Shown here in pieces: positions 25,618 through 56,497 of a stretch of DNA of 64,000 nucleotides. Origin of the DNA: an uncultured Gemmatimonadales bacterium (GTDB taxonomy: Bacteria; Gemmatimonadota; Gemmatimonadetes; Gemmatimonadales; Gemmatimonadaceae); contig CAWKMU010000003.1 in assembly GCA_963850905.1 (NCBI GenBank), forward strand, positions 2,240,001-2,304,000, given 5' to 3'. The first letter of the stretch is position 1. Each line of letters starts with the position of its first letter. Below the pieces are notes generated by a model. It had not been told where the DNA came from and made no database searches. It was given only the letters and a program-made list of their open reading frames with translations. The translations under genes and the position numbers were made by a program.

Positions 25618-25751
25618 GATCGAGTCTCGCGCTGCCCAGGGGCGGCGTCTGGTGGCTGACGAGTGGTGATGGTGTCTATCGGTCCGGATATTCTTCCGCG
25701 CGGCGGGGGCTGTCAACGGCCGCGGTGCAGAAACGTAGATTTTACGCTCAT

Positions 25752-41041: not shown

Positions 41042-42312
41042 AATCCAGCGCCCAGCCCGCCGCTCCCGCTGCGGCTTTCCAGCGACCGCGATCGGCCGAG
41101 ACCGCGGAGACGCCCCAGTCGATCGCGCACGCGGGCGACGTGTTCACGAAGGCCCAACAGTTCACTCGTCTGCGCGAAGTGCAGGCGATGGGGCTCTACC
41201 CGTATTTCGTGCCAGTGCACGCCTCGGGCTCGACCGAAGTCATCATCAACGGCAAGCGCGGCGTGATGGTCGGCTCGAACAACTACCTGGGCCTCAGTCA
41301 CGACCCACGGGTGGTGGCGGCTGCCCAGGACGCGATCACCAAGTACGGGACCGCGTGTACCGGTAGCCGCTTCCTGAATGGCAACACGGAGTTGCACGAG
41401 ACGATCGAGTTCCGCCTGGCGAAGTTGACCGGGAAAGAGGCGGCGCTCGTCTTCTCCACCGGCTTCCAGACCAACCTCGGCGTGATTTCGGCGCTCGTCG
41501 GTCGCGACGATGCGGTGTACATCGATAAGCTCGACCACGCGAGCGTCGTGGACGGGTGCCGTCTGGCGGCCGGCGACACTGTCCGCTTCCGGCACGGCGA
41601 TCTCGACGAGCTCGAGACGAAGCTGCGCCATGCCCGTTCAGGCGGGAAGTTGATCGTCGTGGACGGCGTGTTCAGCATGGAAGGCGATATCGTCGATCTG
41701 CCGCGGGTGGTCGAGCTCAAAGAGCGCTACGGCGCCCGGCTGGCTGTCGACGATGCCCACGCGATCGGCGTGTTGGGAGCGACGGGTGCCGGCACGGCGG
41801 AGCATTTCGGCCTGACCGACCAGGTCGATCTGATTATCGGCACGTTCAGCAAGTCGTTCGCATCGATCGGCGGCTTTGTAGCGGGTGAACAGGTCGTGAT
41901 CGACTACCTCAAGCATCACGCGCGTGCGTTGATCTTCAGTGCGTCGATGCCCCCGTCCGCCTGCGCCGCCGTTTTGGCGAGCATCGACATCCTCGAGCAG
42001 GAGCCCGAACGCCGGCTCGCGCTGTGGAAGAACGCGGCTCGCATGCAGGAAGGGCTGCAATCGCTCGGATTCGACACCTGCGGGAGCGAGACACCGATCG
42101 TGCCGGTAGTGATCGGCGATGATCTGCTGACGTTCGAGTTCTGGCGACAGCTGTACGACAACGGGGTGTTTGCCAACCCGGTGGTCGCGCCCGCCGTGCC
42201 GGCTCATGCCGCGCGGATTCGAACGTCCTACTCGGCGACGCATACGCCGGAGCAGCTCGACTTCGTGCTCGACGTCTTCGCGCGGGTCGGGAAGGGGCTG
42301 GGGGTCATCTGA
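41038..42312 (+). CDS. spt: Serine palmitoyltransferase-like alpha-oxoamine synthase
   Basis: LYPYF, MVGSNNYLGL, GSRFLNG, FSTGFQTNLG, DHAS, DDAH and GTFSKS (PLP Lys); next to bCerS- and CerR-like genes. Confidence 0.75.
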   Translation: MKSSAQPAAPAAAFQRPRSAETAETPQSIAHAGDVFTKAQQFTRLREVQAMGLYPYFVPVHASGSTEVIINGKRGVMVGSNNYLGLSHDPRVVAAAQDAITKYGTACTGSRFLNGNTELHETIEFRLAKLTGKEAALVFSTGFQTNLGVISALVGRDDAVYIDKLDHASVVDGCRLAAGDTVRFRHGDLDELETKLRHARSGGKLIVVDGVFSMEGDIVDLPRVVELKERYGARLAVDDAHAIGVLGATGAGTAEHFGLTDQVDLIIGTFSKSFASIGGFVAGEQVVIDYLKHHARALIFSASMPPSACAAVLASIDILEQEPERRLALWKNAARMQEGLQSLGFDTCGSETPIVPVVIGDDLLTFEFWRQLYDNGVFANPVVAPAVPAHAARIRTSYSATHTPEQLDFVLDVFARVGKGLGVI

Positions 42313-42349
42313 GCGGTCGACGCGCCGGGCCTCTCCGTCGGAGGCTCCG

Positions 42350-43477
42350 CTGATCGACGTCGCCCCAGTCCGCTCCGGTGCAGAGCGGCGGGAGTTTATA
42401 GAGCTGCCATACCGGCTCTATCGCGATGATCCGCTCTGGGTGCCGCCGCTGCGGCGCGACGTGGCAGATCTATTGAACCCCCGCCATCCCTTTCATCAGC
42501 ACGCGCAGGTCGAGCTATTCCTCGCGCGTGACGATCGGGGACGCATCGTCGGCCGGATTGCTGCTGCAAAGAACGACGCCCATCTGGCTCAGCATCACGA
42601 CGGCGCGGGATTCTTCGGCTTCTTCGAGACGGAGCGAGATCCCGCCATCTCACCGACGATGTTCGACGCGGCCGCCACGTGGCTGCGTGAACGTGGCCTG
42701 ACCGTCATGCGCGGACCCGCCAGCTTTTCGGTGAACGAGGAGTGTGGGCTGTTGGTCCGCGGGTTCGATACGCCTCCTGCCCTCATGATGCCTCACAATC
42801 CGCCGTGGTACGCGGACGTTATCGAGGGCTATGGCTTCGCCAAGGCGAAAGACCTGATTGCGTACTGGCTACCTGATGCGCAGGTGCCCGAGCGCGTGGA
42901 ACGCGTGGCTGACGCGCTCGCGAAGCGGCATGAGATCGTGATTCGTCCGCTCAACATGAAGGATTTCGACGCCGAGGTTGCGCGCATCCGGTCACTGTAC
43001 AACGAGGGGTGGCAGGCGAACTGGGGCAACGTCCCAATGACGGATGCCGAGTTCACGCACATGGCGAAGCAGTTCAAGCCTGTCGCGGTGCCTGGAATGG
43101 TGCTCTTCGCTTATGTCCGAGGCAAGCTCGCTGGGTTCGCCTTGGCCCTGCCTGACTTCAACGTCGCGTTGCGCCACATGAAGGGCCGCCTCCTCCCCTT
43201 CGGGTGGGCGCTCGCTCTGTGGTACCAGCGAAAGATTGACCGGGGCCGCGTACTGACCCTCGGCGTGTTGCCGCAGTTTCAACGGACCGGCGCTGCCGAT
43301 CTCCTCTATCTCACGCTCATCAAGAACGCGAAGGCCAAAGGATTCGTCTGCGGCGAGGCGTCGTGGATTCTCGAGGACAACGCGCTCATGCGGGTGCCGA
43401 TCGAACGGGTGGGCGGCGAGGCGTACAAGACGTACCGCTTGTACGACAAGGCGATCGGAGCTCCGGCATCGCGTTGA
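42350..43477 (+). CDS. Bacterial ceramide synthase-like GNAT protein (bCerS/YghO family)
   Basis: FI.LPY.LY..DP.WVPPL, GRI, FGFFE, RGP, GLLV.GFD.PP...MPHNP.WY, W..NWG.VP and SWILEDN motifs. GGAGG at 42340-42344 precedes an in-frame CTG at 42350. Confidence 0.75.
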   Translation: MIDVAPVRSGAERREFIELPYRLYRDDPLWVPPLRRDVADLLNPRHPFHQHAQVELFLARDDRGRIVGRIAAAKNDAHLAQHHDGAGFFGFFETERDPAISPTMFDAAATWLRERGLTVMRGPASFSVNEECGLLVRGFDTPPALMMPHNPPWYADVIEGYGFAKAKDLIAYWLPDAQVPERVERVADALAKRHEIVIRPLNMKDFDAEVARIRSLYNEGWQANWGNVPMTDAEFTHMAKQFKPVAVPGMVLFAYVRGKLAGFALALPDFNVALRHMKGRLLPFGWALALWYQRKIDRGRVLTLGVLPQFQRTGAADLLYLTLIKNAKAKGFVCGEASWILEDNALMRVPIERVGGEAYKTYRLYDKAIGAPASR

Positions 43478-43489: not shown

Positions 43490-44470
43490 GTGAATGATGT
43501 GCAGCCAGTCGAGGCGGTCGTCACGGGCGCGACCGGGTTTGTCGGCAGCCATCTGGTCGAGGCGCTCCTCGCTCGCGGTGATCGAGTCCGATGCCTGACG
43601 CGCCCCACGAGCGACCGTCGTTGGCTCCCGCCGCAGGTCACGCAGATTCCCGGTAGCCTGGACGACGTCGACACACTCGCGAAGGCGGTCGCCGGCGTCG
43701 ACGTGGTCTACCACTTGGCGGCCGTCACCTCGACCGCACACCCCGCGGACTACGACCACACGAACCGCGGCGGGGTCGTCCGCCTCCTCACAGCGCTCGC
43801 CGCGCGGGCGCCTGCCGCCCGGCTCGTGTTCTGCTCCAGTCTCGCCGCCGGAGGCCCAGCCCGCGCGGGACGTCCGCTAACGGAAACCGATCCACCGTCG
43901 CCCGTCGGTCCCTACGGCGTCTCGAAGGCTCGGGCTGAGCAGGAGATCGCAACGGCTCGCATCGACGCGGTGATCATCCGCCCTCCGGCCGTCTATGGTC
44001 CCCGTGACCGCGATGTGCTCGCGGCGTTTCGCCTGGCATCGCGTGGTCTTGCGGTGCGGACTGGCCCGCCCGCGCAGCAGCTCGCGCTGGTGCACGTGGC
44101 AGACCTGGTGCGCGCGCTCGTGAGCGCAGGCTACACACCTCGTGCGAACGGCCTCTATTACGTGAACGGCGGAAATCACAGCTGGGAGGACATCGTCTCC
44201 GCAATGGGCGATGCGGTCGGGCGGCGCCCTCGCGTCATCCCGGTGCCGGCGCCGTTCGTGCGCGGTGCCGGGCACGCCGCCCGGATCTGGGCGCGCATCA
44301 CGGGCGCAAAACCGTTGCTGACCCCGGAACGCTCGTGGGATCTCGTCCAGCAATCCTGGACATGTGATGATGCCCGCGCGCGCGGCGACCTGCACTACCA
44401 ACCACAGGTCGGACTCGCCGAGGGAATGCGCGTGACCGCTGCGTGGTATCGCGAGCAGGGCTGGCTCTAG
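43490..44470 (+). CDS. NAD-dependent epimerase/dehydratase-family SDR (candidate ceramide reductase CerR)
   Basis: TGATGFVG, YHLAA, SSLAA, YGVSK and RPPAVYGPRD motifs; third gene of the spt operon. Confidence 0.8.
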   Translation: MNDVQPVEAVVTGATGFVGSHLVEALLARGDRVRCLTRPTSDRRWLPPQVTQIPGSLDDVDTLAKAVAGVDVVYHLAAVTSTAHPADYDHTNRGGVVRLLTALAARAPAARLVFCSSLAAGGPARAGRPLTETDPPSPVGPYGVSKARAEQEIATARIDAVIIRPPAVYGPRDRDVLAAFRLASRGLAVRTGPPAQQLALVHVADLVRALVSAGYTPRANGLYYVNGGNHSWEDIVSAMGDAVGRRPRVIPVPAPFVRGAGHAARIWARITGAKPLLTPERSWDLVQQSWTCDDARARGDLHYQPQVGLAEGMRVTAAWYREQGWL

Positions 44471-44486
44471 GGCCGCGGTTGCTTCC

Positions 44487-45533
44487 TCACGATTCCGTCG
44501 GGCTACCGCGGGCTGGCTGCGGCTTGGTCGGTTGGCCGCGTTTGAGTACCAATGCCACGGTGAGACCGATCCCGATCCAGGCCAGCTCCCGGAGCCGCGT
44601 GATCACGCCGGTATAAACTCCCAGTGCTGGTGACAGCCCCAGCAACGAGTACGCGAAGGTGATGCCGCCTTCTCGAGATCCGAGCTCGAAGGGCACGAAG
44701 ATGAACAGGATGATGGCCAGCTGCGAGATCGCACCGATGAGAAAGGCGGTGGCGTAGCTGATGCGAAGGCCTTCAGTGTGTGCGACGATGTAGAACTCGA
44801 GCATCGCGATACATCGCCCGAGGACCTCGAACAGCACCGCCACGATGAGGCGAGGTCGCTCGCCAACCGTCAGTTCCGCCATCTGCTCATCGATGTGCGC
44901 GAGCGTATGACGAAAGCGTTCGGCGCGCGGCGCCAGACGTCGGAGCAGTGGGAGGTGGTGGAGTGCGTCGAGCGCTCGCTCCACGAATCCATGGCGAAAG
45001 AGGAGGAGGAGGAAACAGCACACCCCGATGAGCACGAGCCCCGTCACGAGCAGCACCACCCGTACGGCCACCGTGTGCGGCAGCAGGATCCACCCGATGG
45101 GAAGTGCGAGGAGCCAGAAGATCATCTGTCCGAGGGTGTGCGTCACCCGGAAGCTGACAACCGAGGCTGCCGCGCGGTCGGGTCCAATCCAATCGGCGGC
45201 TTGCGCGAGCTTGAGCGGCTCGCCCCCGAGCGCCACAAAGGGCGTCGCGTAGTTGATCGCGAAGCTCGCGACGCTGATGGCGTACGCCTGAAGAAAGGGG
45301 ATGCGATCGTGGGTTCCGCCGCGGCCTTGTCGGGCGGCCGTCGCACCGATGAGCGCGGACCACGCGATCGTATTGCTGACGTACACGACGGCCCAGACAC
45401 CCACGATGGCCAAGAACGCCCATCGGGCATGCTGCAAGGTCGCGATGAGGCCACCGACACCGGCCTGTAGGACCAGGACGACGAAGAAGATGAGACCCGC
45501 GACGAGAATGAGCAGTCGCGCCGCGCGGCTCAT
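44487..45533 (-). CDS. Lysylphosphatidylglycerol synthase TM / flippase-like membrane protein
   Basis: Multi-TM protein; INYATP...GGEP.K, P..LG.REGG and R.REL.W motifs. Confidence 0.82.
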   Translation of the reverse strand: MSRAARLLILVAGLIFFVVLVLQAGVGGLIATLQHARWAFLAIVGVWAVVYVSNTIAWSALIGATAARQGRGGTHDRIPFLQAYAISVASFAINYATPFVALGGEPLKLAQAADWIGPDRAAASVVSFRVTHTLGQMIFWLLALPIGWILLPHTVAVRVVLLVTGLVLIGVCCFLLLLFRHGFVERALDALHHLPLLRRLAPRAERFRHTLAHIDEQMAELTVGERPRLIVAVLFEVLGRCIAMLEFYIVAHTEGLRISYATAFLIGAISQLAIILFIFVPFELGSREGGITFAYSLLGLSPALGVYTGVITRLRELAWIGIGLTVALVLKRGQPTKPQPARGSPTES

Positions 45534-45542
45534 CGGCGTGTG

Positions 45543-46625
45543 TTAGTCGAGGGTGACTCGGGTGCCGGTCGCGGCGGCGGTGTACGCGGCCTCGAGCACG
45601 CGCGCGACGCGGTCGATTTCATCGAGCGCTTCCGGGGCGCCGCCCCGGTCGAGGGCATCCGCGAAGGTTCCGAAGAGCGCGGCAAACCAACCGGCGTAGG
45701 ATCGTTTGTCCAGCTGCGATGAGAAATCGAGTGGCTCGCCCGGGTGCCCGGCGCGTTCCAGGGTGAGGACCCCACCCTGCCAGTCGATGCTGCCCCGATC
45801 GCCGATGAATCGCACGCGATTCTCGCGGTGTGTGGCGGCCCACGTCAACATCATCGTCGCGATGCGGTCTGGAAACTCGATGATGAGCTCCGCCGTGTCC
45901 TCAACACTATACTCACGATGGCGCAACCGGCCGGTCCATGCACGAACAGCCGTGGGCATCGCACCGGCCGCGTCGAGCAGCGAATACAGCAGGTGTGTGC
46001 CGTGGTCGAGCAGGATCCCGCCGGCTCCCTCGGCCGCGACTGTGCGCCACGGGCGCGCCGCTTCGCTGCGCCCCGCATCCGCCGCAGGGCGATACACCGA
46101 GAGTTCGGCGAGGTGCCAGTGCCCAATCACACCGTCGCGCAGCCAGCGTTGCATCTGTTGCCAGGCTGGGTTGAAGCGGTGCTGATGACACGGTATCACG
46201 ATGCGCTGTGCCCGACGGGCAGCCACCGCGATCGCACTTGCCTCGGCGCGTGTGGTCGCGACTGGCTTCTCGCACAACACGTGCAGCCCATTGTCCAGGG
46301 CCCATAACGTCGTGGCGAGATGGAGACCGGTCGGCGTGCATACGTCGACGAAATCGATCGGGGCAAACGCGTTCAGGCCTCCCCGATCCGGGATGACCGG
46401 GATATCCGCGTCGCCCTGCGCACCCGGGGCCGGGTCGACCGCGACCACGATCGCCAGCCGCTCTCGCAGGCGAGGATCCTGGCGCGCGCCCGGAAGGTGG
46501 GAGTTGCGCGCCACCCCTCCAAACCCGATGAGCGCCCCACGGTACACGTCGCGCGTTACCGCCGAACGGTGAACCGCCCCGCTGCGCGGCGCGGGCGCGG
46601 ACGCGCCCGCGACGGCATCACTCAC
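45543..46625 (-). CDS. Gfo/Idh/MocA-family oxidoreductase (inositol-dehydrogenase-like family)
   Basis: IGFGGVA, VCTP..LH, HVLCEKP and GGILLDHGTH motifs; GTG at 46625 overlaps the upstream stop. Confidence 0.86.
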   Translation of the reverse strand: MSDAVAGASAPAPRSGAVHRSAVTRDVYRGALIGFGGVARNSHLPGARQDPRLRERLAIVVAVDPAPGAQGDADIPVIPDRGGLNAFAPIDFVDVCTPTGLHLATTLWALDNGLHVLCEKPVATTRAEASAIAVAARRAQRIVIPCHQHRFNPAWQQMQRWLRDGVIGHWHLAELSVYRPAADAGRSEAARPWRTVAAEGAGGILLDHGTHLLYSLLDAAGAMPTAVRAWTGRLRHREYSVEDTAELIIEFPDRIATMMLTWAATHRENRVRFIGDRGSIDWQGGVLTLERAGHPGEPLDFSSQLDKRSYAGWFAALFGTFADALDRGGAPEALDEIDRVARVLEAAYTAAATGTRVTLD

Positions 46626-47616
46626 CGCCAATGGCGCGAGCGGGAGCCGCCGGGGAGGCGGACCGGGTGCGATCCAAGACACGCAGCGCGTTGTCCGCCC
46701 CGCGTTCCTGCGCGTGAATCAGCCAGAGCAAGATCGCGTTCATCGGTGCGATGGTCATCCACAGCAAGCCGGCCGGCCATCCGGCAACTGCAGTGACGCC
46801 CAGAATGATGAACCGGAAGTTCTGACCGAGCCACGCGCAGTGTCTGAGCAGCGGCGCGACCTCGGCCCGGTAGTAGCCGGCGGCCGGTCCCCGACCCTCT
46901 TGCCGCGTGGCGCGCAGCAGCGCGACGGTGCGGGGAAACATGCTCGCCTGTCGACGGTTGTACGTCTCGTATATCCGTACGCCGACGCGACGCAGCCACG
47001 ATCCGTTGCCGAACTGCCTCGTCGCGCCTTCCATATCGAGCTCGCTGCCCCGTCCGACGGCCAACGCCAGGAAAGCGTGGCGGATGAAGTCGATCGCCGA
47101 GCTCTGAAAGGACTGGCTGACCGCTGCCGCAGTGACCAGTGCAGTCGCCCCGAGCCAGCTCCAGTGCTGCGCCAGGACGAGGCGAATGAGCAGGTGCACG
47201 GCTAGATTGATGAACCGCGCGGCGTCCGAGGTGCCATCCAGGATGCGACCGAGTGGCGTCGACGTCCCCCGGAGGCGTGCAAGCTGCCCATCAGCGCTGT
47301 CAAAGATGTCGGAGATGATGAAGAGCACGAACCCGGTCGCATTGAGCCAGGGACTCGCGTACACGAACAGATGGCCGGCGACGAGGCCAATGAGGAGACT
47401 CAGGAACGTGACCTGATCCGCCGTGACCCACGTCCGCGACAACCGGTGCGCGATGCGGGCACCGATGGGGCGGAAGAAGTGAAGATCGAGCCACTCCTCG
47501 ACCTCGTCGCCCTTCGTCGCGAGGGGATTGGCGCCCGGACCGGGTAACCGCGGGTCTGGGCGGGTATGAAGCGCGGGGCGGCGGGACCGGCCCGACGCCG
47601 TCGAGCAATGCGTCAT
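46618..47616 (-). CDS. CDP-alcohol phosphatidyltransferase
   Basis: Signature DSADGQLARLRGTSTPLGRILDGTSD; EE..D..FFRP; TM helices. Confidence 0.92.
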   Translation of the reverse strand: MTHCSTASGRSRRPALHTRPDPRLPGPGANPLATKGDEVEEWLDLHFFRPIGARIAHRLSRTWVTADQVTFLSLLIGLVAGHLFVYASPWLNATGFVLFIISDIFDSADGQLARLRGTSTPLGRILDGTSDAARFINLAVHLLIRLVLAQHWSWLGATALVTAAAVSQSFQSSAIDFIRHAFLALAVGRGSELDMEGATRQFGNGSWLRRVGVRIYETYNRRQASMFPRTVALLRATRQEGRGPAAGYYRAEVAPLLRHCAWLGQNFRFIILGVTAVAGWPAGLLWMTIAPMNAILLWLIHAQERGADNALRVLDRTRSASPAAPARAIGGE

Positions 47617-49004
47617 GCCCCGATCCGCTCCGCCGTTTCCTGCAGGACCTGCTTCATCGTTGCAAGCGCTTCCATCGCCTCAGCCTCGCGGATGACCAGC
47701 GGCGGATTGATCCGCACCTCTGGATTGTAGATCATCGCCAATACCCCGCGACTCAGCAGCGTGTCGAAGATCCACCGCGTCTGATCCTTGGGCAGTAGTC
47801 GGTCGGTCCCTGGAACGACCAGATCCATCCCGATCATGAGACCGCGCCCGCGCACGCCGTGCACGATGGGGATCGTCCGTTCCCACGATTTCATCTCGGC
47901 GAGCATTCGCGCACCGAGGGACCGACTGTGCTCGACCAGTCCTTCCTCGAGAATCGTCTCGATGGCCACGCGCGCAGCCGCGGCGGCGAGCGGGTTGCCG
48001 CCATAGCTCGACGAGCTCCCGCTCGGATTGGCCCACGGCTTCGCGTGGGCCACGGTCTCGCGGGCGATCAGTCCGGTCATCGGGAAGCCGCCGCCGAATC
48101 CCTTGCCGATCGTCATGATATCGGGCACGATCGCGTCATGCTCGACCGCGAACATGGTGCCGGTGCGACCGAATCCCGTGAGCATCTCGTCCGCGATGAG
48201 CACTGCACCGATCTTGTCCGCGAGTGCCCGGAGGACGCGCAGATAGCCGGGCGGTGGCACGATGTTCCCGGCGGTACCCTGAATCGGTTCGACGATGATC
48301 GCCGCGACGTCGTTCGTCGTCTCGAGCTCGATCTTGCGACGGAGAAACTCGACGCAGTGCCACTCGCACGACGGGAACGTCTTGTCGAAGGCACACCGAG
48401 CGCACGACGCGTACGGCGCGCTGTACTCTCCCGGCATGAGCGGCCCGAGCGCGTGCTTGAAGTTCGATCCGAGCAAAGGGAGCACGCCCGCCGTCTTGCC
48501 GTGAAACCCGCCCCAGAAGCCGATGACCTCGGTCTTCCCCGTATAGGACTTTGCCAGCCGCAACGCGGATTCGACCGCTTCCGCTCCGCTGCTGTACAAC
48601 TGAGTGCGCGAGAGGTCGCCGGGCGTCACCTCGGCGATCAGCTTGACGAGCGCCGCGCGGTTCTCCGACGTGAAGCTGCCGACGTGGATCCGCGCCACCT
48701 GCCGCTGGACCGCGGCAACAAATTTGGGGTGGGCGTAACCCAGGCTCGCCACGCCGACGCCTGCGAGCAAGTCGATGTACCGCTTGCCGTCCACGTCAAC
48801 CAGCACCGCCCCCTCGCCGTGGTCGATGCACAGCTTGCTGAAGAGCGCGACGCTCTGGGTGCCCGGCGCGAGGAACTCCGCCTCAGCATCAAACAGGGCT
48901 ACGGACCGGGGACCGGCGGCACGCGGCGGTGTGGGCGGGGTCGTCGGGCGAAGTCGGGGCTCGGCGAGCGCCGTCGGTTGCTGCGTCACGTTGCGGATAC
49001 TCAA
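47613..49004 (-). CDS. Class III PLP-dependent aminotransferase
   Basis: G....D.DG..YID, SSGAEAVE, FHGKT, EPIQG, DEMLTGFGRTG, GKGFGGGFP, YGGNP and RGRGLMIG motifs. Confidence 0.92.
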   Translation of the reverse strand: MSIRNVTQQPTALAEPRLRPTTPPTPPRAAGPRSVALFDAEAEFLAPGTQSVALFSKLCIDHGEGAVLVDVDGKRYIDLLAGVGVASLGYAHPKFVAAVQRQVARIHVGSFTSENRAALVKLIAEVTPGDLSRTQLYSSGAEAVESALRLAKSYTGKTEVIGFWGGFHGKTAGVLPLLGSNFKHALGPLMPGEYSAPYASCARCAFDKTFPSCEWHCVEFLRRKIELETTNDVAAIIVEPIQGTAGNIVPPPGYLRVLRALADKIGAVLIADEMLTGFGRTGTMFAVEHDAIVPDIMTIGKGFGGGFPMTGLIARETVAHAKPWANPSGSSSSYGGNPLAAAAARVAIETILEEGLVEHSRSLGARMLAEMKSWERTIPIVHGVRGRGLMIGMDLVVPGTDRLLPKDQTRWIFDTLLSRGVLAMIYNPEVRINPPLVIREAEAMEALATMKQVLQETAERIGA

Positions 49005-49900
49005 GCGGGAGAGTGGGACAGATGGGACGCGGCGTAGGCCGCGATATGACGGGCGGCTTCCGCGCGGAAGGGCGCGAAACTCGGCCAGTCGTTGAGATCG
49101 ATCAGCACCGGCTCATCACGTGCCGGCAAGGCGACATCGCCGCCAAAAACATCGAGTCTCAGCTCCTGCGCCGCCGCGAAAGCTAGCGCGCGCAAACGCT
49201 CCTCGTCGACGTCGGGACGTGGACCGCCGGGACCGGCGTCGGCGCCATAATACTGGAAGAACTGCCCGTCGGCGACTCCATAGAACTTGACAACGGGCCC
49301 CGGGACATGCTCCTGCAGCGCAACGCGCGCAATGCCGCGACCCCCGAATGCCGCGATGGCGTGGCGCAGGTCGTCGCGCGTCACCGCGACGACGTCCGCC
49401 GCGCATTCGGCGTGGACATCTCCGCGCTTCACCCAGACTGCCCGCCCGTCGGCTCCGAAGCCATCGAGCTCCGGATCGCCCGCCGTAGCGACGACCGCCG
49501 TGCGTGGAAAGGCGACCCGTCGGTGGGCGAGGATATTCACCAGGCGGTGGCGATGGCACCCGAGCACGCTCGACGGGCGATTGATGAGGCGCACCCCCGA
49601 CGCTTCGGCCTCGAGGAGGCGCTCGGAGGCATCCGGACCCTGGCACATGTTGAGCACGACGTCCGCACCGCGAAGCACATCCGCGGACAGAGTCCCTCGG
49701 ACGACGTCGGACTCGGATGCGCGGGTGGTGAGCCAACCCAGTTCCTCGAGGCACGCGACCGTGGCGTCCAGAATCGCCTCATCGTTCGCGCGGTGTTGAT
49801 TGGGCGAATATGACGGCTGACGGTACAGCGCGACCGCTCGCTGGCCCGTGGCCATCACGGGCTTCGACCCGGGCGAGCCGTCCAAATTGCGCTCACTCAT
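49001..49900 (-). CDS. ATP-grasp-fold protein (inositol tris/tetrakisphosphate kinase-like motifs)
   Basis: WVKRGD, LQEHVPG..VKFYGV, FGGDV and LIDLNDWPSF (DxN metal motif). Confidence 0.7.
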   Translation of the reverse strand: MSERNLDGSPGSKPVMATGQRAVALYRQPSYSPNQHRANDEAILDATVACLEELGWLTTRASESDVVRGTLSADVLRGADVVLNMCQGPDASERLLEAEASGVRLINRPSSVLGCHRHRLVNILAHRRVAFPRTAVVATAGDPELDGFGADGRAVWVKRGDVHAECAADVVAVTRDDLRHAIAAFGGRGIARVALQEHVPGPVVKFYGVADGQFFQYYGADAGPGGPRPDVDEERLRALAFAAAQELRLDVFGGDVALPARDEPVLIDLNDWPSFAPFRAEAARHIAAYAASHLSHSPA

Positions 49901-50633
49901 CCTCTGCCCCGAGCCATGCGTTTGCGAGCTCCAAGTCCTGTCGGCGGTCGACGTCGACGATGCGTGTCACCTCGACCGTCGCGACGCGTGCGCCTTCGTC
50001 GACGAGCCGGCTGAGGAAGCCGCGCATTCGGCTGATGCCTTCACGCCGCGCACGAGCTGCCTCTGCGCGCGCAGCGACGCCGAAGGCGTAGACGCCGCCC
50101 GTCACGCACGGCGGTGACGCGGGCGCGTCGCCGAGGCGTCGCACGATACCTGCCGGGTCGCGCTCGACCCACAACGGTCGTTCGTCGTCGACGAAGGGGG
50201 TGACGGCAAGGACGGCGTCCGCACCGGCGGCGAGCAAGTCGGTCGCCGCCGTGTACACGACATGCCAATCCCGGTTTCGCATCACGGTGTCCACCATCGT
50301 GCAGAACACGTCCCCTGGGGGCACGGTCGCCAACCCGTCGACGAGCGTATGCAGCGAGGATGGCGTGCGGCATAGCACCACACGCACCGCGGTCGACCCG
50401 AGCTCCGCCACCCCATCGAGCAGGGCCCGCATGCCATGCGCCGCGCTCGCGCTGGCGTCCCCGGCGCTGTCGCGCAGCATGCAGGTGATCGTCGGGCAGC
50501 CCAGGTCGTGCAGCGTCCCAACGAGACGTACCAGCTGCGGCCGACCAGCGATCGCGACCGCGGCTTTGGGTCCATCGACGCCGTCGGCGGCAAGGCGCGA
50601 CCCCGTGCCCCCGGCCAGAATCAAGCCATGCAT
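49893..50633 (-). CDS. NTP-transferase (sugar/cyclitol-phosphate nucleotidyltransferase)
   Basis: LILAGGTGSRL....PK, TPSSLH, VDTV, VT.FVDDE.PL.V and DVD...DL..A motifs. Confidence 0.86.
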   Translation of the reverse strand: MHGLILAGGTGSRLAADGVDGPKAAVAIAGRPQLVRLVGTLHDLGCPTITCMLRDSAGDASASAAHGMRALLDGVAELGSTAVRVVLCRTPSSLHTLVDGLATVPPGDVFCTMVDTVMRNRDWHVVYTAATDLLAAGADAVLAVTPFVDDERPLWVERDPAGIVRRLGDAPASPPCVTGGVYAFGVAARAEAARARREGISRMRGFLSRLVDEGARVATVEVTRIVDVDRRQDLELANAWLGAEDE

Positions 50634-51379
50634 CGCTGTCGTCCCGCGTGGGTCGACGCGCCAGCCGTCTCGAGGACGGCCGTGAGCTGCGCTAAGGATT
50701 CGAGTCGGACTGTCGGGGGGACACCCGGCGGCACCGCGCGATCAGCCGGTGTCAGCCACGCGGTGCGCATGCCCAACTGCTGCGCCGGTCGAATGTCGGC
50801 CTGGAAATTGTCGCCGACCATCCAGGCTCGGTCAGGCGGTACGCCCAACGCCTCCAACGTGGTCGTGAACGGGAGCAGGTCGGGCTTCGCGGTCCCGAGG
50901 ACCCCCGAGTCCGTGACGACGTCGAACAAATCGGCGATCGCCACCTCTTCGAGGCATGGGCGCAGATTTCCAGTGAAGTTCGACACCACGCCGAGGCGAT
51001 AGCGCGTGCGCAACGCGGCCAGGATGGGTCGGTTGCGCGCGATCACCGCTACCGCGTCGCCGTGAACTCGATCAGCTATATCATGCACATCCATCGCGGA
51101 TCCGTCGGGAAGCAAGGTACAGAGAATCGCGGCCTGAGCGTCGATCATGCCGCGCAGGCCGAGGGCACGAATGCCCGTGTGCGTCTCGAGACGGCGGTCC
51201 GACAGGCTGAACAACGGATCAAATGCCTCAAAACTGAGGCGACCGCCGCCGCGCGCGTATGCCGCGTGGAATCGGACACTCCAGCGCACGCCATCGGCGT
51301 CCAGCGTACCGCCAAAATCGAATAACACCGCACCGCGAGAGTCCCTCGCGCGCTCATCACCAGCATCGACCAGGACCAC
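50621..51379 (-). CDS. HAD-superfamily hydrolase/phosphatase
   Basis: VLFDFGGTLD, VSNF, KPD and VGDN...DI motifs. Start approximate. Confidence 0.88.
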   Translation of the reverse strand: MVLVDAGDERARDSRGAVLFDFGGTLDADGVRWSVRFHAAYARGGGRLSFEAFDPLFSLSDRRLETHTGIRALGLRGMIDAQAAILCTLLPDGSAMDVHDIADRVHGDAVAVIARNRPILAALRTRYRLGVVSNFTGNLRPCLEEVAIADLFDVVTDSGVLGTAKPDLLPFTTTLEALGVPPDRAWMVGDNFQADIRPAQQLGMRTAWLTPADRAVPPGVPPTVRLESLAQLTAVLETAGASTHAGRQRCMA

Positions 51380-51933
51380 TCCGGGCGAACACCACAATAC
51401 TGTATCGTAACCGTAACATCCGGGCAAGCGCTTCCGGCGTCGAACTATACACGTGAGTAGGGACGATCGGCCGGCCACCCAGCGCACGTCGCCGTTACGG
51501 AAGCCGGTTTCGTCGTTACACGGCGCCGCGGGATCGTGCACGATCGACCGGCGCCGACGGCGAGCGCGATCTCGGCGTGCCGGCGCCTGATTCGGGATCA
51601 CGCCGAGCTGCGGCGCAACCCACGGCGTGCCTGCGTCGGCGGCATGCCACCACGCAAGCTCGCCGCTGTTTCACCACGCGCGCCCGATCGCACGTCGTAA
51701 CACGTGTCGTCCGGGGGGGTGATACGGATTGCGGCGTCCGTGCCACAACGGGCGTCAGTAGCTCTCGCAATCCGCGTGAGCCTGGGCAGCCTGCAATGTA
51801 TGAATTGGCGACAGCGTCGGGGACCCCGGCCCGTAGACCCGCGGAATGGGCCTTCGCTCAAAAAGCGCTTTCGGCGGCTCGCGTTTCCTCGGGTCAACTC
51901 GCCGCCCTCCCGGACGGCCCCGTTGCTGCAAAA

Positions 51934-52022
51934 GGGAGGGCAAAACCGGCGCGAGCCGGGTGTGGCACAGGAGGGCTGGCGTGGACGGCTGGCTGTCCGT
52001 GCTGGCAATCCCGCTGTCCCTC
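51934..52022 (+). ncRNA. Candidate structured leader RNA resembling a c-di-GMP-I (GEMM) riboswitch
   Basis: GGCAAAACCGGC-GCGA-GCCGGG (GNRA-capped stem), then GGCACAG and a 13-bp stem (CTGGCGTGGACGG/CTGTCCGTGCTGG), with GAGGG/CCCTC closing. Lies 60-80 nt before a pilin operon. No canonical tetraloop receptor seen. Confidence 0.35.
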
Positions 52023-52099
52023 GAGACCGCGAGCGATATGGCTCGCGTTGTTGTCGGAACCCTCACACCGCGAGCGTTGGCATGACACGGTGCACAACG

Positions 52100-52672
52100 A
52101 TGGCACGTCGGGCTGCGGTGACGCTGGTTGAGGTCATGATCGTGCTCACGATCATTGGGATCGGCTCCGCCGTCGCGCTATGGAAACTCGACATCGCGTC
52201 ATACCAAACCATGGGTGACATGCAGGCTATTGGGTCGGCGTTGATCGCGGCCCAGCGGCAAGCCATCGCGCATCAATGCAACGTGATCGTCACGTTCGAT
52301 ACGACCGCGCGGGTAGTCCACTTGATCGTGGACGCGAATAACAACGGGTTGCAGGACCCGGGCGAGCACGAGACGGCGTATGCGCTCGGCGATCGCGTGC
52401 GATTCAGCATGGGGGCGACGCCAGTCGGTGACGTCGGCGCCGGGCCGATCACCTTCAGCAACACGACGAACGGTCTGCCCTCGGTGACGTTCTTCCGCAA
52501 CGGGGCCGCGAGCCAGGCTGGCGGCGTCTACATCACGTCAATGCGTGAGGCGATCACCAACGATCCGCAGTATGCTGGCCAGACACACATGGTCGAGGTC
52601 GCGCGCGCCACCGGCCGCGCCGACTGGTGGCACTACGACCCCGGCACCGCCGTCTGGGTGAGGGGGTTCTGA
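52100..52672 (+). CDS. Type IV minor pilin, FimT/GspH-like (cluster 2)
   Basis: RRAA|VTLVEVMIVL; shares VIV.FDT, D.NNN..D.GE, F..NG.AS and TGR..W with 29695-30270. Alternative start at 52082. Confidence 0.85.
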   Translation: MARRAAVTLVEVMIVLTIIGIGSAVALWKLDIASYQTMGDMQAIGSALIAAQRQAIAHQCNVIVTFDTTARVVHLIVDANNNGLQDPGEHETAYALGDRVRFSMGATPVGDVGAGPITFSNTTNGLPSVTFFRNGAASQAGGVYITSMREAITNDPQYAGQTHMVEVARATGRADWWHYDPGTAVWVRGF

Positions 52673-53076
52673 TGACGACGACACAGAATCGCTCCGGCTT
52701 CTCGCTGGTCGAGGTGATGGTGGCGCTGGTCATTCTCACCATCGTCGTCGCCGGACTCGCGGGCACGACGGTCACCTTCCAGCACCAGATGTCGCTCGGT
52801 CAGATCGAAGCGCGGGCCCAGGCCGTTGCCAACTCGCAGCTCGCGCAGATTCGCGCGTATCCGGACTACACCCAGCTGGCGACGTTCGCGGGCACGCAGA
52901 CCAACTACCCGACGACCGGGTGGTCACTGCAGACGCAGGTGATTCGTGACACGTCTGCAGTCACCGACTGTGTCACCCCGCCATGCGCCAACAACAATGT
53001 CACCCGCATCATGGTGAGTGTGACGGCGCCTGGGCTGTCGTTGCCCGTCGCGCTGTCGTACTCCATCGCGCCGTAG
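52672..53076 (+). CDS. Type IV minor pilin, PilV/GspI-like (cluster 2)
   Basis: RSG|FSLVEVMVAL; I.AYP.Y..L..F.GTQ shared with the cluster 1 paralog; TGATG coupling. Confidence 0.87.
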   Translation: MTTTQNRSGFSLVEVMVALVILTIVVAGLAGTTVTFQHQMSLGQIEARAQAVANSQLAQIRAYPDYTQLATFAGTQTNYPTTGWSLQTQVIRDTSAVTDCVTPPCANNNVTRIMVSVTAPGLSLPVALSYSIAP

Positions 53077-53108
53077 TGGCTCGAGCCGTGAGCATCCTGG
53101 AGGCCGTG

Positions 53109-54275
53109 ATGTCGGACCACCCACTCGATCCGCAGGGTCGCTCGGTACCTTCCGTGCGTCGTCGCGGTATGACCCTGATGGAAGTCATGATCGCCATGGT
53201 CATGATGGGGCTCGTGCTTGGCGCGGCCATGAGCTTCTTCGTGAGTCAGTCGCGATCCTACAGCGCGGCAGCCAAGGCGTTCAACCAGGTGCAGAACGTG
53301 CGCTTCGGTGCTGATCTCCTCGACCAGCACCTCCGCGCGGCCGGGGCGAACACGACGCCGGGCCAGCCTCCATTGGTGTATCTGGGCCCGAGCGCATTCG
53401 CATTCAACGCCGACTACTCCTCCAACATCTCTGGGACGACGGCGATCTTTTACAACCCCGGCGCGCCTTCGCTCGAGACGGAAGGCGTGCTCTCGGCCAA
53501 CCAGTTCAACCTGCCGGGTGTGGCACCCGCGTACGCCTATCCGACGGTGGACTACGCGATCGCGCCCGGCGTGCCTAGCCCGGCCGAGCTCATCACCTTC
53601 TGGTTCCAAATCGACAGCACCTCGCCGGTGCCGGGGACGTACGCGCTGTATCGTGAGGTGAACAACGGCACGGTAGAGGCGGTGGTTCGAAACATCCTGC
53701 CCGACAGTGTCCCGTTCTTCCAGTACTACAAGCTTGTGACCAATGCCGTCACCGGCTTGCAGTCGCTGGCACTCGTGACGCCGGCCGAGCTCCCGGCTGC
53801 GTACACGACCACGCTCATGATCGACAGCATCCGCGCCGTCCAGGTGACATATCGCGTGTCCAACGGCGACACGGGCTCCGCTCAGCGGATTCAGTCGTTC
53901 AGTCTCACGTCTGCGCTTCCGAATCTCGCGAACCCCGCGCTGGCCACATGCGGTGACGCACCGCAACCGGTGCCCTCAGTCACCGCGGTGGCGTCGGGGA
54001 TTCCTCACACTGACAGTGTGACCGTGTCCTGGCAGCCCAGCCCCGACGAGTGGAGCGGTGAGCGCGACATCATGCGCTACATCGTCTGGCGTCGGTTGGC
54101 GACCGACTCGACGTGGAACAACCCTTTCACGTCCGTACCGAACGGACTGACGTCGTACACGTTCGTCGACCTGACCGCTCCGGATAGTGTCGGCGTCGAG
54201 TATGCCGTCTCAGCGCAGGACTGTACGCCGTCGTTCTCCAGCCCAGTCAGTAGCAGCATGGTGACGCCGCCGTGA
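53109..54275 (+). CDS. Type IV minor pilin, PilW/GspJ-like, with FN3-like C-terminus (cluster 2)
   Basis: RRG|MTLMEVMIAM; QN.RF, FNAD, S.AE.I, YALYR.VN, FFQYYK, DSIRAVQ and AQ.CTPS shared with cluster 1. Confidence 0.87.
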   Translation: MSDHPLDPQGRSVPSVRRRGMTLMEVMIAMVMMGLVLGAAMSFFVSQSRSYSAAAKAFNQVQNVRFGADLLDQHLRAAGANTTPGQPPLVYLGPSAFAFNADYSSNISGTTAIFYNPGAPSLETEGVLSANQFNLPGVAPAYAYPTVDYAIAPGVPSPAELITFWFQIDSTSPVPGTYALYREVNNGTVEAVVRNILPDSVPFFQYYKLVTNAVTGLQSLALVTPAELPAAYTTTLMIDSIRAVQVTYRVSNGDTGSAQRIQSFSLTSALPNLANPALATCGDAPQPVPSVTAVASGIPHTDSVTVSWQPSPDEWSGERDIMRYIVWRRLATDSTWNNPFTSVPNGLTSYTFVDLTAPDSVGVEYAVSAQDCTPSFSSPVSSSMVTPP

Positions 54276-54316
54276 CCGGCGTCGCTCGTCGTGTTTTCTC
54301 GAACCGGGATCTCGCC

Positions 54317-56497
54317 ATGATCCGACCCACATCACCGTTCCCGCGCGACAAGCGCGGCGCGACGCTCGTCGCGGTGCTCCTCATTGCGCTGGTGGTCGCC
54401 GCGATTGTGGTCCTGGCGGCAGCTACCACGGCCAACGCGGGGCTGATCGCGAAGAACAGCGCTCGCTCGGGCGTCCTCTATGACGCCGCGGAGTCCGGCG
54501 TCGCGGAAGCGCAGAACTGGATCAACACGCACCCGAACCAGCAACCGTTCCGGTCGGCGGATAGCGGCGAGATCGCGCTCGAGAACAACGTGCAGGTGAA
54601 CGACGCCCTCGGGAACCCAATCGCGGGGATGTACCGCACGACCTGGATCGGGAAGGGCGGAAGCCGCACGGGCGAGTTCGGCATCTTCGGCGCCATCATC
54701 AGTCAAGTCACCGATGCGGTCGGGAACACGGTCGTTCACCGTGCGGCGATCTATCAAGACACTTTCGCCAAGTACGCCTACTTCTCAAACAGTGAAGGCG
54801 GCATCTACTTCGGCGGTGGCGACCAGATCTTCGGGCCGGCGCACTCCAATGACTTCATTCGCATCGCGCCGTCAGGCGTGGAATTCCACAGCCAGCTGAC
54901 GACCTCGCAGACGATCACTACAGGTCTGGCCTATGGCATTTTTGACCAAGGCTACCAGCAGCACGTGCCGGTGATCCACCTCCCGAGCGTGTCGTCTCTC
55001 ACGTCGCTCAAGGGTTTGTCTGACGTCGGCAACGTCACGGTGCTCGGGAGTGGCACCGTCGGCAATGGGTACCAGGCCACCACCCGCATCGAGTTCGTCT
55101 CGCTCGATCTGAACAATGACGGGGATTCGACCGACCCTGATGAAGGATTCATGCGCGTCTTCCAGAGCACGGACCCGCGGTATGTCGTCGCCGGCACCTT
55201 CGGATCGAACGACTATGGCGACGTCATGAATCCCGGCAACACGAATTGCGGTTCGTACTACGCGGGGGACTCGTCCTTCAAGCTCGTGAGCACGCTCGTG
55301 GCCAACGGGGTGACGGGTGCGCAACTGGAAGACAGCCTGGGCAACGGGCGCGGGCAGTGCTATCTCGGTGGCGACGAGCACCTCAACAGCCCCATACACG
55401 TAGGCCCCACGTTCCAGGCGACTGGCTGGCCGGGCGGCGGTCAGTGGCTACCAAATCCAATGGCGTACGATCCACGCCTCGGACAAGCTGGCGCCAAACG
55501 ACAGGATTCGCTCTACCTCTGGCCGATCACTCACGCCGAGAATCTCAATTTCAAGGGCGTTGTCTTCGTCGACGGCAAGGTGGCCGTCAGCGGGAAGTTG
55601 CGCGGCCGACTGACGCTCGCGTCGCCGTACAACATCATTTTCGTCGGCAATACGAAGCTGCAAACCGACCCCGCAGTCGGCACGTGCCCGGACTACCTCG
55701 GTGCGTTTGCCGCTGACGACGTCGTCGTGGCGGACAACATGTTGCTATCGCCTCAGGCGGCATCCTCGACGCCAGGCGACTCGGTCTGGCGGTTCCAGCC
55801 CCCCGCGCCGACGCAGTCGACCTATTTGCAGGTCTCGCTGCTCGCGTTGAACAAGTTCCAGGTCCAGAACTACACGGGCGGTGTGATCGGCGCTCTGCCC
55901 TGTCAGACCGTGCCCGCTGGACGTGGTTGTCTGTATCTCACCGGCGGGATCATTCAAGGCACCCGCGGCGCTGTCGGGACCATGTGGCCAGGCGGCGACA
56001 GCGGGATGACCGGCTACATCAAGCGATATCAGTACAACATGTGCGGGCTGACGCTGCCGCCGCCGTATTTCCCGACAACGGGTCGCTTCTCGGAGGACCG
56101 ATCGTTCGAGATGGACCCCGTCAACTTCAACGAGCACGCGTGGTTCGTGATCCCGTCGTTGGCCGCGCAGGATTCGTTGTTGATGCTGCCCGTGCCGCCC
56201 CCGCCCCCGCCGCCGGTGACGCCGCCGACGAGTCCTCCGCCCCCGGTGACGCCGCCCCCGGTGACGCCCCCGGTGACGCCGCCGCCGCCCCCGCCACCGG
56301 TGACGCCGCCGCCGCCGCCGCCCCCACCGGTGACGCCGCCTACGGGACCGCCGACGACGCCTCCGCCGCCGCCGCCCCCGCCCCCGCCGCCGCCGCCACC
56401 GCCGCCGCCGGCACCGCCGCCACCGCCACCGCCGCCGGTGACGCCGCCGCCGCCGCCGCCGCCCCCGGCGCCCCCGCCGGTGCCGATCGTAGACTAG
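54317..56497 (+). CDS. Large PilX/GspK-like minor pilin with C-terminal polyproline tail (cluster 2)
   Basis: KRG|ATLVAVLL (no Glu5), AAESG; conserved blocks with 31955-34006; ~100-aa Pro-rich end. Confidence 0.82.
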   Translation: MIRPTSPFPRDKRGATLVAVLLIALVVAAIVVLAAATTANAGLIAKNSARSGVLYDAAESGVAEAQNWINTHPNQQPFRSADSGEIALENNVQVNDALGNPIAGMYRTTWIGKGGSRTGEFGIFGAIISQVTDAVGNTVVHRAAIYQDTFAKYAYFSNSEGGIYFGGGDQIFGPAHSNDFIRIAPSGVEFHSQLTTSQTITTGLAYGIFDQGYQQHVPVIHLPSVSSLTSLKGLSDVGNVTVLGSGTVGNGYQATTRIEFVSLDLNNDGDSTDPDEGFMRVFQSTDPRYVVAGTFGSNDYGDVMNPGNTNCGSYYAGDSSFKLVSTLVANGVTGAQLEDSLGNGRGQCYLGGDEHLNSPIHVGPTFQATGWPGGGQWLPNPMAYDPRLGQAGAKRQDSLYLWPITHAENLNFKGVVFVDGKVAVSGKLRGRLTLASPYNIIFVGNTKLQTDPAVGTCPDYLGAFAADDVVVADNMLLSPQAASSTPGDSVWRFQPPAPTQSTYLQVSLLALNKFQVQNYTGGVIGALPCQTVPAGRGCLYLTGGIIQGTRGAVGTMWPGGDSGMTGYIKRYQYNMCGLTLPPPYFPTTGRFSEDRSFEMDPVNFNEHAWFVIPSLAAQDSLLMLPVPPPPPPPVTPPTSPPPPVTPPPVTPPVTPPPPPPPVTPPPPPPPPVTPPTGPPTTPPPPPPPPPPPPPPPPPAPPPPPPPPVTPPPPPPPPAPPPVPIVD
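56191..56490 (+). repeat. Coding (CCG)n-rich polyproline/VTPPP repeat
   Basis: Repeated CCGGTGACGCCGCC units and CCG runs. Confidence 0.9.

Follow-up and report, generated by a model that had tools for sequence, protein, structure and literature searches.

A described counterpart of the genes analyzed here is the "putative alternative" cluster of the Bacteroides vulgatus type, in which an NTP transferase, a CDP-alcohol phosphatidyltransferase, and a HAD hydrolase lie beside inositol-phosphate synthase (MIPS), with an LPG-synthase-like gene nearby (Heaver 2022, PMC9246714). According to the same paper, B. vulgatus and Prevotella veroralis, which have the alternative cluster and lack the BT-type genes, make inositol-phospho-dihydroceramide; its authors describe the enzyme functions as unconfirmed, and its passages on the cluster do not mention an ATP-grasp gene. 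Here, we analyze a related operon on a 64,000-nucleotide stretch of DNA, referred to as the window, from an uncultured Gemmatimonadales bacterium (GenBank assembly GCA_963850905.1, contig CAWKMU010000003.1, positions 2,240,001–2,304,000 of the forward strand). As judged from the sequences, the seven genes at 44487–51379 very likely specify a lipid head-group pathway homologous to the Bacteroidota core. The full proposal, in which inositol is oxidized, transaminated, phosphorylated, CDP-activated, put on ceramide, and flipped, is possible and is put forward tentatively. The operon and the cluster of Heaver 2022 share the NTP transferase, a CDP-alcohol phosphotransferase (CDP-AP) with the full motif, the HAD protein, and the LPG-synthase-like protein, a match that rests on gene content in the loci of related taxa. 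Compared with the cluster as described in that paper, the operon adds a dehydrogenase and an aminotransferase around the CDP-AP and has MIPS unlinked, and the protein identities are 24–36%. The five-gene core is a known, uncharacterized kind of head-group pathway, and the amination module is the variant. An earlier note on this DNA, written from the letters alone, had taken the gene set to be undescribed: no description of the seven genes together was found in our literature searches, but the core is not new, as three of its genes figure in the putative pathway of Heaver 2022.

Several other systems resemble parts of the operon. Tannerella forsythia lacks the genes for inositol synthesis, including MIPS, and forms its inositol ceramides solely from exogenous inositol, with no kinase candidate known in the account of Megson 2015 (PMC4587543). 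In the archaeal and Thermotoga IPCT/DIPPS systems and in the CDP-inositol ether-lipid synthase of Rhodothermus marinus (as cited in PMC4587543), a cyclitol phosphate is activated by a cytidylyltransferase and then handled by a membrane CDP-AP, as proposed here; as described, they have neither an amination step nor an ATP-grasp gene, whereas the CDP-AP of the window carries an insert of ~55 residues. A precedent for the dehydrogenase–aminotransferase pair is found in hygromycin A biosynthesis, in which MIPS, a phosphatase, a PF01408 NAD-dependent myo-inositol dehydrogenase, and a proposed aminotransferase (Hyg18, Hyg25, Hyg17, and Hyg8) lead from glucose-6-phosphate to an inosamine (PMC10949010). 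Of these enzymes, Hyg17 alone is reported there as tested in vitro, and the product, as presented, is a soluble antibiotic precursor formed with no CDP activation and no lipid. The CpgA–D system of Caulobacter also builds a sphingolipid head group with a cytidylyltransferase (CpgD) of the inositol-phosphate cytidylyltransferase fold family, but the donor is CDP-glycerate and a ceramide kinase is involved; the relevant passages of that paper (PMC12275187) make no mention of a CDP-AP, amination, or ATP-grasp. The phosphatidylinositol-phosphate (PIP) synthase route of B. thetaiotaomicron and mycobacteria likewise makes an inositol lipid from MIPS-derived inositol phosphate, and the genome of the window has such a pair of genes. 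This route differs in using CDP-diacylglycerol as the donor and no head-group NTP transferase, and the operon CDP-AP reaches just 40 bits on the PIP synthase model. Literature searches turned up no relevant paper on an aminated inositol lipid or on sphingolipids of Gemmatimonadota, and a paper on Black Sea sphingolipids (PMC11334938) mentions neither inositol nor Gemmatimonadota or the other phyla that carry the cassette.

The open reading frame (ORF) listing of the window has seven successive minus-strand ORFs spanning 44487 to 51601, and the genes assigned to them (Table 1) are co-directional, with neighbors that overlap or lie at most 9 nt apart. In transcription order, Pfam and NCBIfam give a HAD protein, an NTP transferase, an ATP-grasp protein, a class III aminotransferase, the CDP-AP, a Gfo/Idh/MocA dehydrogenase, and an LPG_synthase_TM (flippase-like) protein. 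The HAD and NTP transferase genes overlap by 13 nt, the NTP transferase and ATP-grasp genes by 8 nt, and the ATP-grasp/aminotransferase and aminotransferase/CDP-AP junctions are overlaps of 4 nt each. The CDP-AP and dehydrogenase genes overlap by 8 nt from the in-frame GTG at 46625, or by 65 nt if the longest ORF (to 46682) is taken. A gap of 9 nt precedes the flippase-like gene, whose stop codon (44487) is separated by 16 nt from the end of cerR (43490–44470), an SDR gene that converges on the operon. The tight packing and the ending next to cerR had been described in the earlier note, and both were confirmed from the ORF coordinates and Pfam. Its HAD start at GTG 51379 also holds, being in frame and placing motif I at residue 21; ATG 51366 was ruled out as a start because it is not in frame. 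The window has a GC content of 63–69% and is located on contig C3; the genome amounts to 4.49 Mb at 82% completeness. An Rfam scan of the window gave no match, and a scan of 44000–52000 for promoters and terminators gave no signal above shuffles.

The conservation of the operon was analyzed around its CDP-AP gene. From an alignment of 17 CDP-AP homologues and a scan of one genome per species, 590 relatives were obtained; the best 80 loci (given here with L numbers) were taken with 10-kb flanks and searched by tblastn with the window proteins (E ≤ 1e-6, query coverage ≥40%), and the choice of genes in GC-rich flanks was based on GC content at third codon positions (GC3). Of these 80 loci, 33 belong to Gemmatimonadota and 47 to other taxa. 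The aminotransferase and dehydrogenase genes are beside the CDP-AP gene in 33/33 Gemmatimonadota loci. All seven genes occur in the order of the window in 26 of them, and in the other seven (L007, L013, L018, L021, L032, L034, and L035), a contig edge falls exactly where the missing genes are expected; L032, with a part of the cassette, belongs to a Gemmatirosa MAG. This identical order, interrupted by nothing but contig ends, places the seven-gene set beyond chance. The earlier note had treated the two amination genes as belonging with the other five, and their conservation in every Gemmatimonadota locus and in six loci elsewhere (four with adjacent MIPS) bears this out. The linkage to spt is recurrent as well: spt-cerS-cerR lies within 10 kb of the cassette in 13/33 Gemmatimonadota loci.

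Most of the other taxa have the core without the amination pair. These 41 of the 47 loci come from Bacteroidota and some Ignavibacteriota, and the Bacteroidota include T. forsythia, Parabacteroides, Bacteroides, Prevotella, Sphingobacterium, Runella, and Dyadobacter. The ATP-grasp gene is beside the CDP-AP gene in 39/41 core-type loci, mostly as ntp-grasp-cdpap-(flip)-had, which is the same relative order as that of the homologues in the window; the T. forsythia locus (L044) reads ntp-grasp-cdpap-had. MIPS is present in 19/41 and spt in 8/41 of these loci, and in Runella and Dyadobacter, spt-cerS-cerR is directly upstream of the core cassette. The likeness to Bacteroidota inositol-lipid loci, which the earlier note had given from recall, is thus real, as homologues of the core were found in those loci. 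Outside Gemmatimonadota, the amination pair was found in six loci (L041, L042, L047, L050, L051, and L080) from Ignavibacteriota, an uncultured Bacteroidetes, Aminicenantes, and Acidobacteriota, in the order grasp-at3-cdpap-gfo-flip-had; MIPS directly follows the HAD gene in four of the six. In L041 and L050, the NTP transferase gene is separated from the remaining operon by MlaE, an ABC ATPase (MlaF), and MlaD, according to Pfam, which also confirms MIPS. In five Gemmatimonadota loci, the genes downstream of the cassette encode an alpha/beta hydrolase, a GT4 glycosyltransferase, a deacetylase, and Mla proteins; no Mla genes are near the window operon. The alpha/beta hydrolase, GT4 glycosyltransferase, and polysaccharide deacetylase at 13927–15964 of L015 and 13824–16443 of L029 may serve to decorate the head group still more.

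The two cassette types are also separated in the sequences of the core enzymes. A tree of the ATP-grasp protein was built from 72 proteins, namely that of the window and 71 of 74 extracted ORFs (three ORFs shorter than 220 residues were dropped, and L051 is absent). The label "amination" requires two changes on this tree, compared with a mean of 24.2 after shuffling, and 0/500 shuffles were as low; one of the two changes is L026, which was labeled "none" though both amination genes are present there in tblastn. The 38 core-type rows form a single group (SH-aLRT 91), and Ignavibacteriota are found on both sides. At position 87, the ATP-grasp protein has Gln in 34/34 amination-type and Arg in 38/38 other sequences, and two further positions are class-specific. 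The NTP transferase has Leu at position 207 in 34/34 amination-type sequences versus Gln in 35/37 others, again with two further positions, and the CDP-AP has Ser102, four residues ahead of the catalytic motif, in 29/31 versus Ala in 36/37. No class-specific residue was found in the HAD protein at the thresholds used for the other three enzymes. This distribution fits a different, possibly aminated, substrate for the three late enzymes, and it also fits a HAD substrate that is shared by both cassette types, with the HAD protein acting before amination.

The ATP-grasp ORF (49001–49900) has no Pfam or NCBIfam family at E ≤ 0.001. An HMMER search of 1.84 billion representatives gave a family of 855 clusters at the same threshold, and an AlphaFold2 model calculated from an alignment of 42 of these clusters has a pLDDT of 94. 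A Foldseek search with the model placed d-Ala-d-Ala ligases on top (E 1.6e-14). VIA-align against 48,161 chains gave ArgX (3vpb) with a Z score of 21.5 (rmsd of 2.9 over 256 residues), RimK with 21.2, and Ddl with 20.3, and the inositol-phosphate kinases PPIP5K2 and ITPK1 with 18.9 and 18.6. The ATP-grasp call of the earlier note, made without a family match, is therefore confirmed by the predicted fold, and the model leaves us certain that the product has the three-domain ATP-grasp fold. PF05770 (Ins134_P3_kin) weakly matches 8 of the 42 aligned members (best E 0.0036) and does not match the window protein. Among nine long relatives that were scanned, five are NTP transferase–ATP-grasp fusions, one is a HAD–NTP transferase–ATP-grasp fusion of 802 residues, and one is an ATP-grasp–CDP-AP fusion of 700 residues; these natural fusions tie the core enzymes together. 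Based on the fusions with the NTP transferase, the T. forsythia locus, and the dependence of that species on exogenous inositol, we regard the ATP-grasp protein as a candidate (amino)cyclitol kinase that would supply the cytidylyltransferase.

The catalytic motif of the CDP-AP is complete (D106-x2-D109-G-x2-A-R...G123-x3-D127-x3-D131), and Asp106, Asp109, Gly110, Ala113, Arg114, Gly123, Asp127, and Asp131 are invariant in 17/17 aligned relatives. The protein scores 43 bits on PF01066 (cut-off 22), and its insert lies between transmembrane helices 4 and 5 (AlphaFold2 pLDDT 83). Its best NCBIfam matches are all inositol-type enzymes, well under their cut-offs: 56.5 bits (cut-off 180) for archaetidylinositol-phosphate synthase NF040950, 40.1 (170) for PIP synthase NF045883, and 35.4 (580) for IPCT/DIPPS NF041135. 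IPCT/DIPPS proteins have a fused or adjacent cytidylyltransferase, and here two genes separate the NTP transferase from the CDP-AP. The best solved relative is AF2299 (E 2.3e-12), with PIP synthases and IPCT-DIPPS also near. The NTP transferase is presumed to be the cytidylyltransferase that makes the CDP-activated head group; a sequence search against solved structures gave marginal matches (best E 7.9e-4), with no inositol-phosphate cytidylyltransferase among them. The flippase-like protein scores 63.7 bits on the HpnL model, under the cut-off of 195. The aminotransferase is the best conserved cassette gene (69–90% identity inside Gemmatimonadota and 55–59% to other phyla). Its closest solved structures are GABA and putrescine aminotransferases, and its translation contains DEMLTGFGRTG and TIGKG, which we take to be motifs of this enzyme class. 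No long fusions of it were found (E ≤ 1e-100, proteins of 812–2315 residues), which is weak evidence. The dehydrogenase contains EKP and D-x3-H motifs, which are presumably catalytic; as the domains and motifs are present and its IolG score is below equivalog level, it was assigned to the Gfo/Idh/MocA superfamily only.

Beyond the operon end, on the opposite strand, lie putative genes for ceramide synthesis. The Spt model NF047600 is the top match to 41038–42312, with 520 bits (below the cut-off of 640), and the names bCerS and CerR are assumed here from the Caulobacter literature. The distribution of these genes was analyzed in an even sample of 201 Gemmatimonadota genomes that includes that of the window. 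The CDP-AP is present in 26/201 genomes (2/38 in the window's family, 23/96 in a second, sister family, and 0/66 elsewhere), and a bCerS homologue is present in 125/201 (5/38 in the window's family and 94/96 in the sister family). The bCerS tally includes the unpublished genomes G067, G107, and G192 and the MIPS tally G067, G167, and G192, none of which carries the cassette. Neither bCerS nor MIPS is missing from any of the 26 CDP-AP carriers, and in the window's family, both carriers fall among the five genomes with bCerS; the co-occurrence with bCerS is discriminating only in this family. In addition, 10/10 tested cassette genomes without adjacent spt (five Gemmatimonadota and five from other phyla) have a bCerS homologue elsewhere, with 41–52% identity.

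The window has no inositol-phosphate synthase, as the earlier note had observed, and the gene was located elsewhere in the genome. This single MIPS gene (C3:2361037–2362257) is ~70 kb from the operon. Directly upstream of it is a gene for a 231-residue PIP-synthase-like CDP-AP, whose score on the PIP synthase model (166.9 bits) is under the cut-off of 170 (pair at C3:2360301–2362312; L003 9301–11312), which suggests that an ordinary inositol-lipid route exists separately. MIPS is present in 26/26 cassette-positive genomes and also in 147/175 others, and its co-occurrence was therefore rejected as a test of the substrate. A conserved small ORF and another small CDP-AP of the inositol type come after the flippase-like gene in 22/33 Gemmatimonadota loci; this pair is inside the operon in L041 and L042. 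In the window's genome, the pair is unlinked from the operon, on contig C4, and is followed by CdsA.

Here, we propose a pathway for the operon. MIPS would provide inositol phosphate, from which the HAD enzyme may release free inositol. The Gfo/Idh/MocA dehydrogenase would oxidize a ring hydroxyl to a ketone, and the class III aminotransferase would convert the ketone to an amine. The cyclitol would then be phosphorylated, presumably by the ATP-grasp protein, and the cyclitol phosphate would be coupled to CMP by the NTP transferase. In the next step, the adjacent spt-cerS-cerR genes would provide the ceramide to which the CDP-AP transfers the amino-inositol phosphate, and the flippase-like protein would move the lipid across the inner membrane. 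The expected product is a zwitterionic amino-inositol (inosamine) phosphoceramide. We infer every substrate, the order of the steps, and the acceptor, and the parts of the proposal differ in strength. The dehydrogenase and the aminotransferase form an inserted module flanking the CDP-AP, for which amination of an inositol-derived head group seems the best explanation. An origin of the head group from inositol is likely, with MIPS in the genome as the supply, and if the head group does come from inositol, its amination is probable. The flippase-like gene in the operon and the Mla genes in or after related cassettes argue for a lipid rather than a solute. Ceramide seems the most likely acceptor, with somewhat better than even support.

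Several observations weigh against this proposal or parts of it. The fold of the ATP-grasp protein leaves a kinase and a ligase unseparated, as the Z scores of the ligases (20–21.5) are above those of the inositol-phosphate kinases (18.6–18.9), and the weak Pfam matches of its 42 aligned relatives are split among ATPgrasp_ST (11), RimK (9), and Ins134_P3_kin (8). The dehydrogenase scores 55 bits on the IolG model TIGR04380 (cut-off 355) versus 61 bits on UDP-GlcNAc 3-dehydrogenase, its best NCBIfam match. Known inosose aminotransferases mostly belong to the DegT family, not to class III. Near PF01408 genes, as tallied in PMC10949010, class III aminotransferases were counted 1,236 times and DegT proteins 15,139 times. 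Motif I of the HAD protein reads DFGGT (residues 21–25), with Gly in place of the usual second Asp. In the family, this motif is D-[FY]-G-G-T; the Asp+2 position is Gly in 65/66 aligned homologues and Ala in one, and none has Asp. As Asp+2 serves as the general acid in classical HAD phosphatases, the phosphatase role is uncertain, and the enzyme may not be a classical phosphatase. The HAD gene is moreover retained in T. forsythia, where the proposed release of inositol would be needless. MIPS is within 10 kb of the cassette in only 1/33 Gemmatimonadota loci, the window operon likewise lacking it, and its co-occurrence with the cassette says little because 173/201 genomes of the phylum sample have it. 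The co-occurrence with bCerS is uninformative in the sister family because bCerS is nearly universal there, and related genomes are not independent. The second small CDP-AP, which follows the cassette in so many loci and lies beside CdsA in this genome, hints at a glycerolipid branch or further decoration. Finally, each of the two cassette types is a clade of its own, so that the class-specific residues may reflect history, not function.

The same aminated inositol-phosphate head group might be placed on a diacyl- or ether-glycerol lipid, or on some other alcohol of the membrane, with the ceramide genes being a general lipid neighborhood, a possibility that we regard as unlikely. It would account for the 20/33 Gemmatimonadota loci without spt within 10 kb and for the small ORF and small inositol-type CDP-AP after the cassette in 22/33 loci, found here beside the CDP-diacylglycerol synthase CdsA, and diacylglycerol is the first acceptor proposed for the core pathway by Heaver 2022 (PMC9246714). 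The presence of bCerS in 26/26 sampled carriers and in all ten specially tested genomes speaks for ceramide instead, as do its rarity in the window's family, where both cassette carriers are among the few that have it, and the position of the core cassette directly after spt-cerS-cerR in Runella and Dyadobacter. As to other membrane alcohols, squalene-hopene cyclase had no clear match in the window's genome (best 22–27 bits; genome 82% complete), and no hopanoid genes were found in the annotated flanks of L011, L015, L029, L033, L037, L041, L050, and L080; a hopanoid acceptor was thus set aside for the window's genome, and for that genome alone. It is improbable that the product is ordinary inositol-phosphoceramide or phosphatidylinositol, with the dehydrogenase and aminotransferase serving inositol stereochemistry, salvage, or a side product. 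The five-gene core does suffice in Bacteroidota that make inositol-phospho-dihydroceramide, and the dehydrogenase has no strong IolG signature; but the two genes flank the CDP-AP gene inside the operon, with overlaps of 4–8 nt, and occur in 33/33 Gemmatimonadota loci, no cassette gene is better conserved than that of the aminotransferase, three late enzymes carry class-specific residues, and a separate MIPS and PIP-synthase-like pair is already available for an ordinary lipid.

An amino-inositol head group also has to be weighed against one derived from another polyol or sugar phosphate, such as a kanosamine-like amino sugar phosphate or a serinol-type amino alcohol, which would be CDP-activated and put on a lipid. 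Trios of a Gfo-family dehydrogenase, an aminotransferase, and a HAD phosphatase work on sugar phosphates in kanosamine synthesis. The top NCBIfam match of the dehydrogenase to UDP-GlcNAc 3-dehydrogenase and the unlinked MIPS in 32/33 Gemmatimonadota loci point in this direction. Nevertheless, MIPS is an immediate neighbor in 4/6 amination-type loci of other phyla and is present in 19/41 core-type loci, and the nearest named relatives of the CDP-AP (AIPS, PIPS, DIPPS, and AF2299) all handle inositol phosphate or CDP-inositol, so that we give such a head group only a small chance. The formation of a soluble phosphodiester solute of the di-myo-inositol-phosphate type in place of a lipid is very improbable. 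DIPPS, too, is a CDP-AP of the membrane and acts together with an NTP transferase and a phosphatase, and the operon CDP-AP weakly matches the IPCT/DIPPS model (35 bits), but far under the cut-off of 580; furthermore, the cassettes include the flippase-like gene and Mla genes for lipid transport, there is a linkage between the cassette and ceramide genes, and the core-bearing Bacteroidota make inositol sphingolipids. Inosamine phosphoceramide is the product that we tentatively favor.

Table 1. Coordinates of the operon, its neighbors, and associated genes (positions in the window unless a contig or locus is given)
Feature	Position	Strand	Family match or remark
HAD-family hydrolase, first operon gene	50621–51379	−	PF13419/PF00702; GTG start at 51379
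MobA-like NTP transferase	49893–50633	−	NTP_transf_3, PF12804, 36.3 bits
ATP-grasp protein, 299 residues	49001–49900	−	predicted fold; no Pfam/NCBIfam match
Class III (omega-type) pyridoxal-phosphate aminotransferase	47613–49004	−	Aminotran_3, PF00202, 318 bits
CDP-alcohol phosphotransferase (CDP-AP), 332-residue long form	46618–47616	−	CDP-OH_P_transf, PF01066
Gfo/Idh/MocA NAD-dependent dehydrogenase	45543–46625 (probable GTG start)	−	PF01408, PF22725, PF02894
LPG_synthase_TM (flippase-like) membrane protein, last operon gene	44487–45533	−	PF03706, 91.8 bits
SDR cerR	43490–44470	+	Epimerase match
GNAT-like bCerS	42170–43477	+	weak Acetyltransf_1 match
spt	41038–42312	+	best NCBIfam model NF047600 (SerpalmtaseCFB)
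Predicted lipoprotein just upstream of spt, 404 residues	39827–41041	+	no Pfam match; signal/lipobox-like N terminus
Small ORF/second CDP-AP pair	contig C4:385648–387592 (L087 9026–11093) in the window's genome; L029 12817–13820; L041 6729–7839		
Mla genes within or just downstream of the cassette	L041 4227–6706; L050 5263–7781; L029 17042–19496		Pfam

The predicted lipoprotein upstream of spt has a homologue in 15/33 Gemmatimonadota loci, which lies next to the ceramide genes or next to the head-group operon. It contains HH, HxH, and Met patterns that resemble those of copper monooxygenases, and the ESM Atlas gives a Cu2_monoox_C score of 0.89, which is a weak lead only. On the other side of the operon, across a gap of ~320 nt, three divergent genes (51704–56497, plus strand) were found; the first two have prepilin-type N-terminal methylation motifs, and the third (741 residues) has no Pfam match. 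A fusion protein of 1034 residues (25725–28826, plus strand) combines APH-type phosphotransferase, peptidase M23, and class III aminotransferase-like domains and presumably resembles the kinase and phospho-lyase pairs for amino alcohols. A cluster of the sugar-oxidation type (14656–20366) consists of a xylose-isomerase-like TIM barrel, an MFS transporter of the nucleoside/H+ symporter type, a second Gfo/Idh/MocA dehydrogenase, gluconate 2-dehydrogenase subunit 3, and a GMC oxidoreductase.

Gemmatimonadota are a common, little-cultured phylum of soil. No paper on their sphingolipids was found in the literature searches, yet a bCerS homologue is carried by 125/201 sampled genomes. The lipid type proposed here, with an amino-inositol head group, has not yet been described according to these searches. 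If the proposal is true, the aminated head group would make an anionic inositol sphingolipid zwitterionic, which would shift the surface charge and probably the interactions with cationic peptides, and the product would be a new lipid class for untargeted lipidomics, with a mass 0.984 Da below that of inositol-phosphoceramide. A broader scenario, which we consider doubtful as a whole, is that Gemmatimonadota and some Ignavibacteriota, Acidobacteriota, and Aminicenantes make inosamine phosphoceramide with an ATP-grasp enzyme acting as kinase on a cyclitol that is not yet phosphorylated, that the ATP-grasp family is the missing inositol kinase of the CDP-inositol pathway in Bacteroidota including T. 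forsythia, and that the Arg/Gln switch at position 87 tunes the enzyme to inositol or inosamine. The comparison offers testable roles for two unassigned genes, the ATP-grasp and flippase-like genes, of the "alternative" Bacteroidota cluster, which is relevant to gut and oral commensals.

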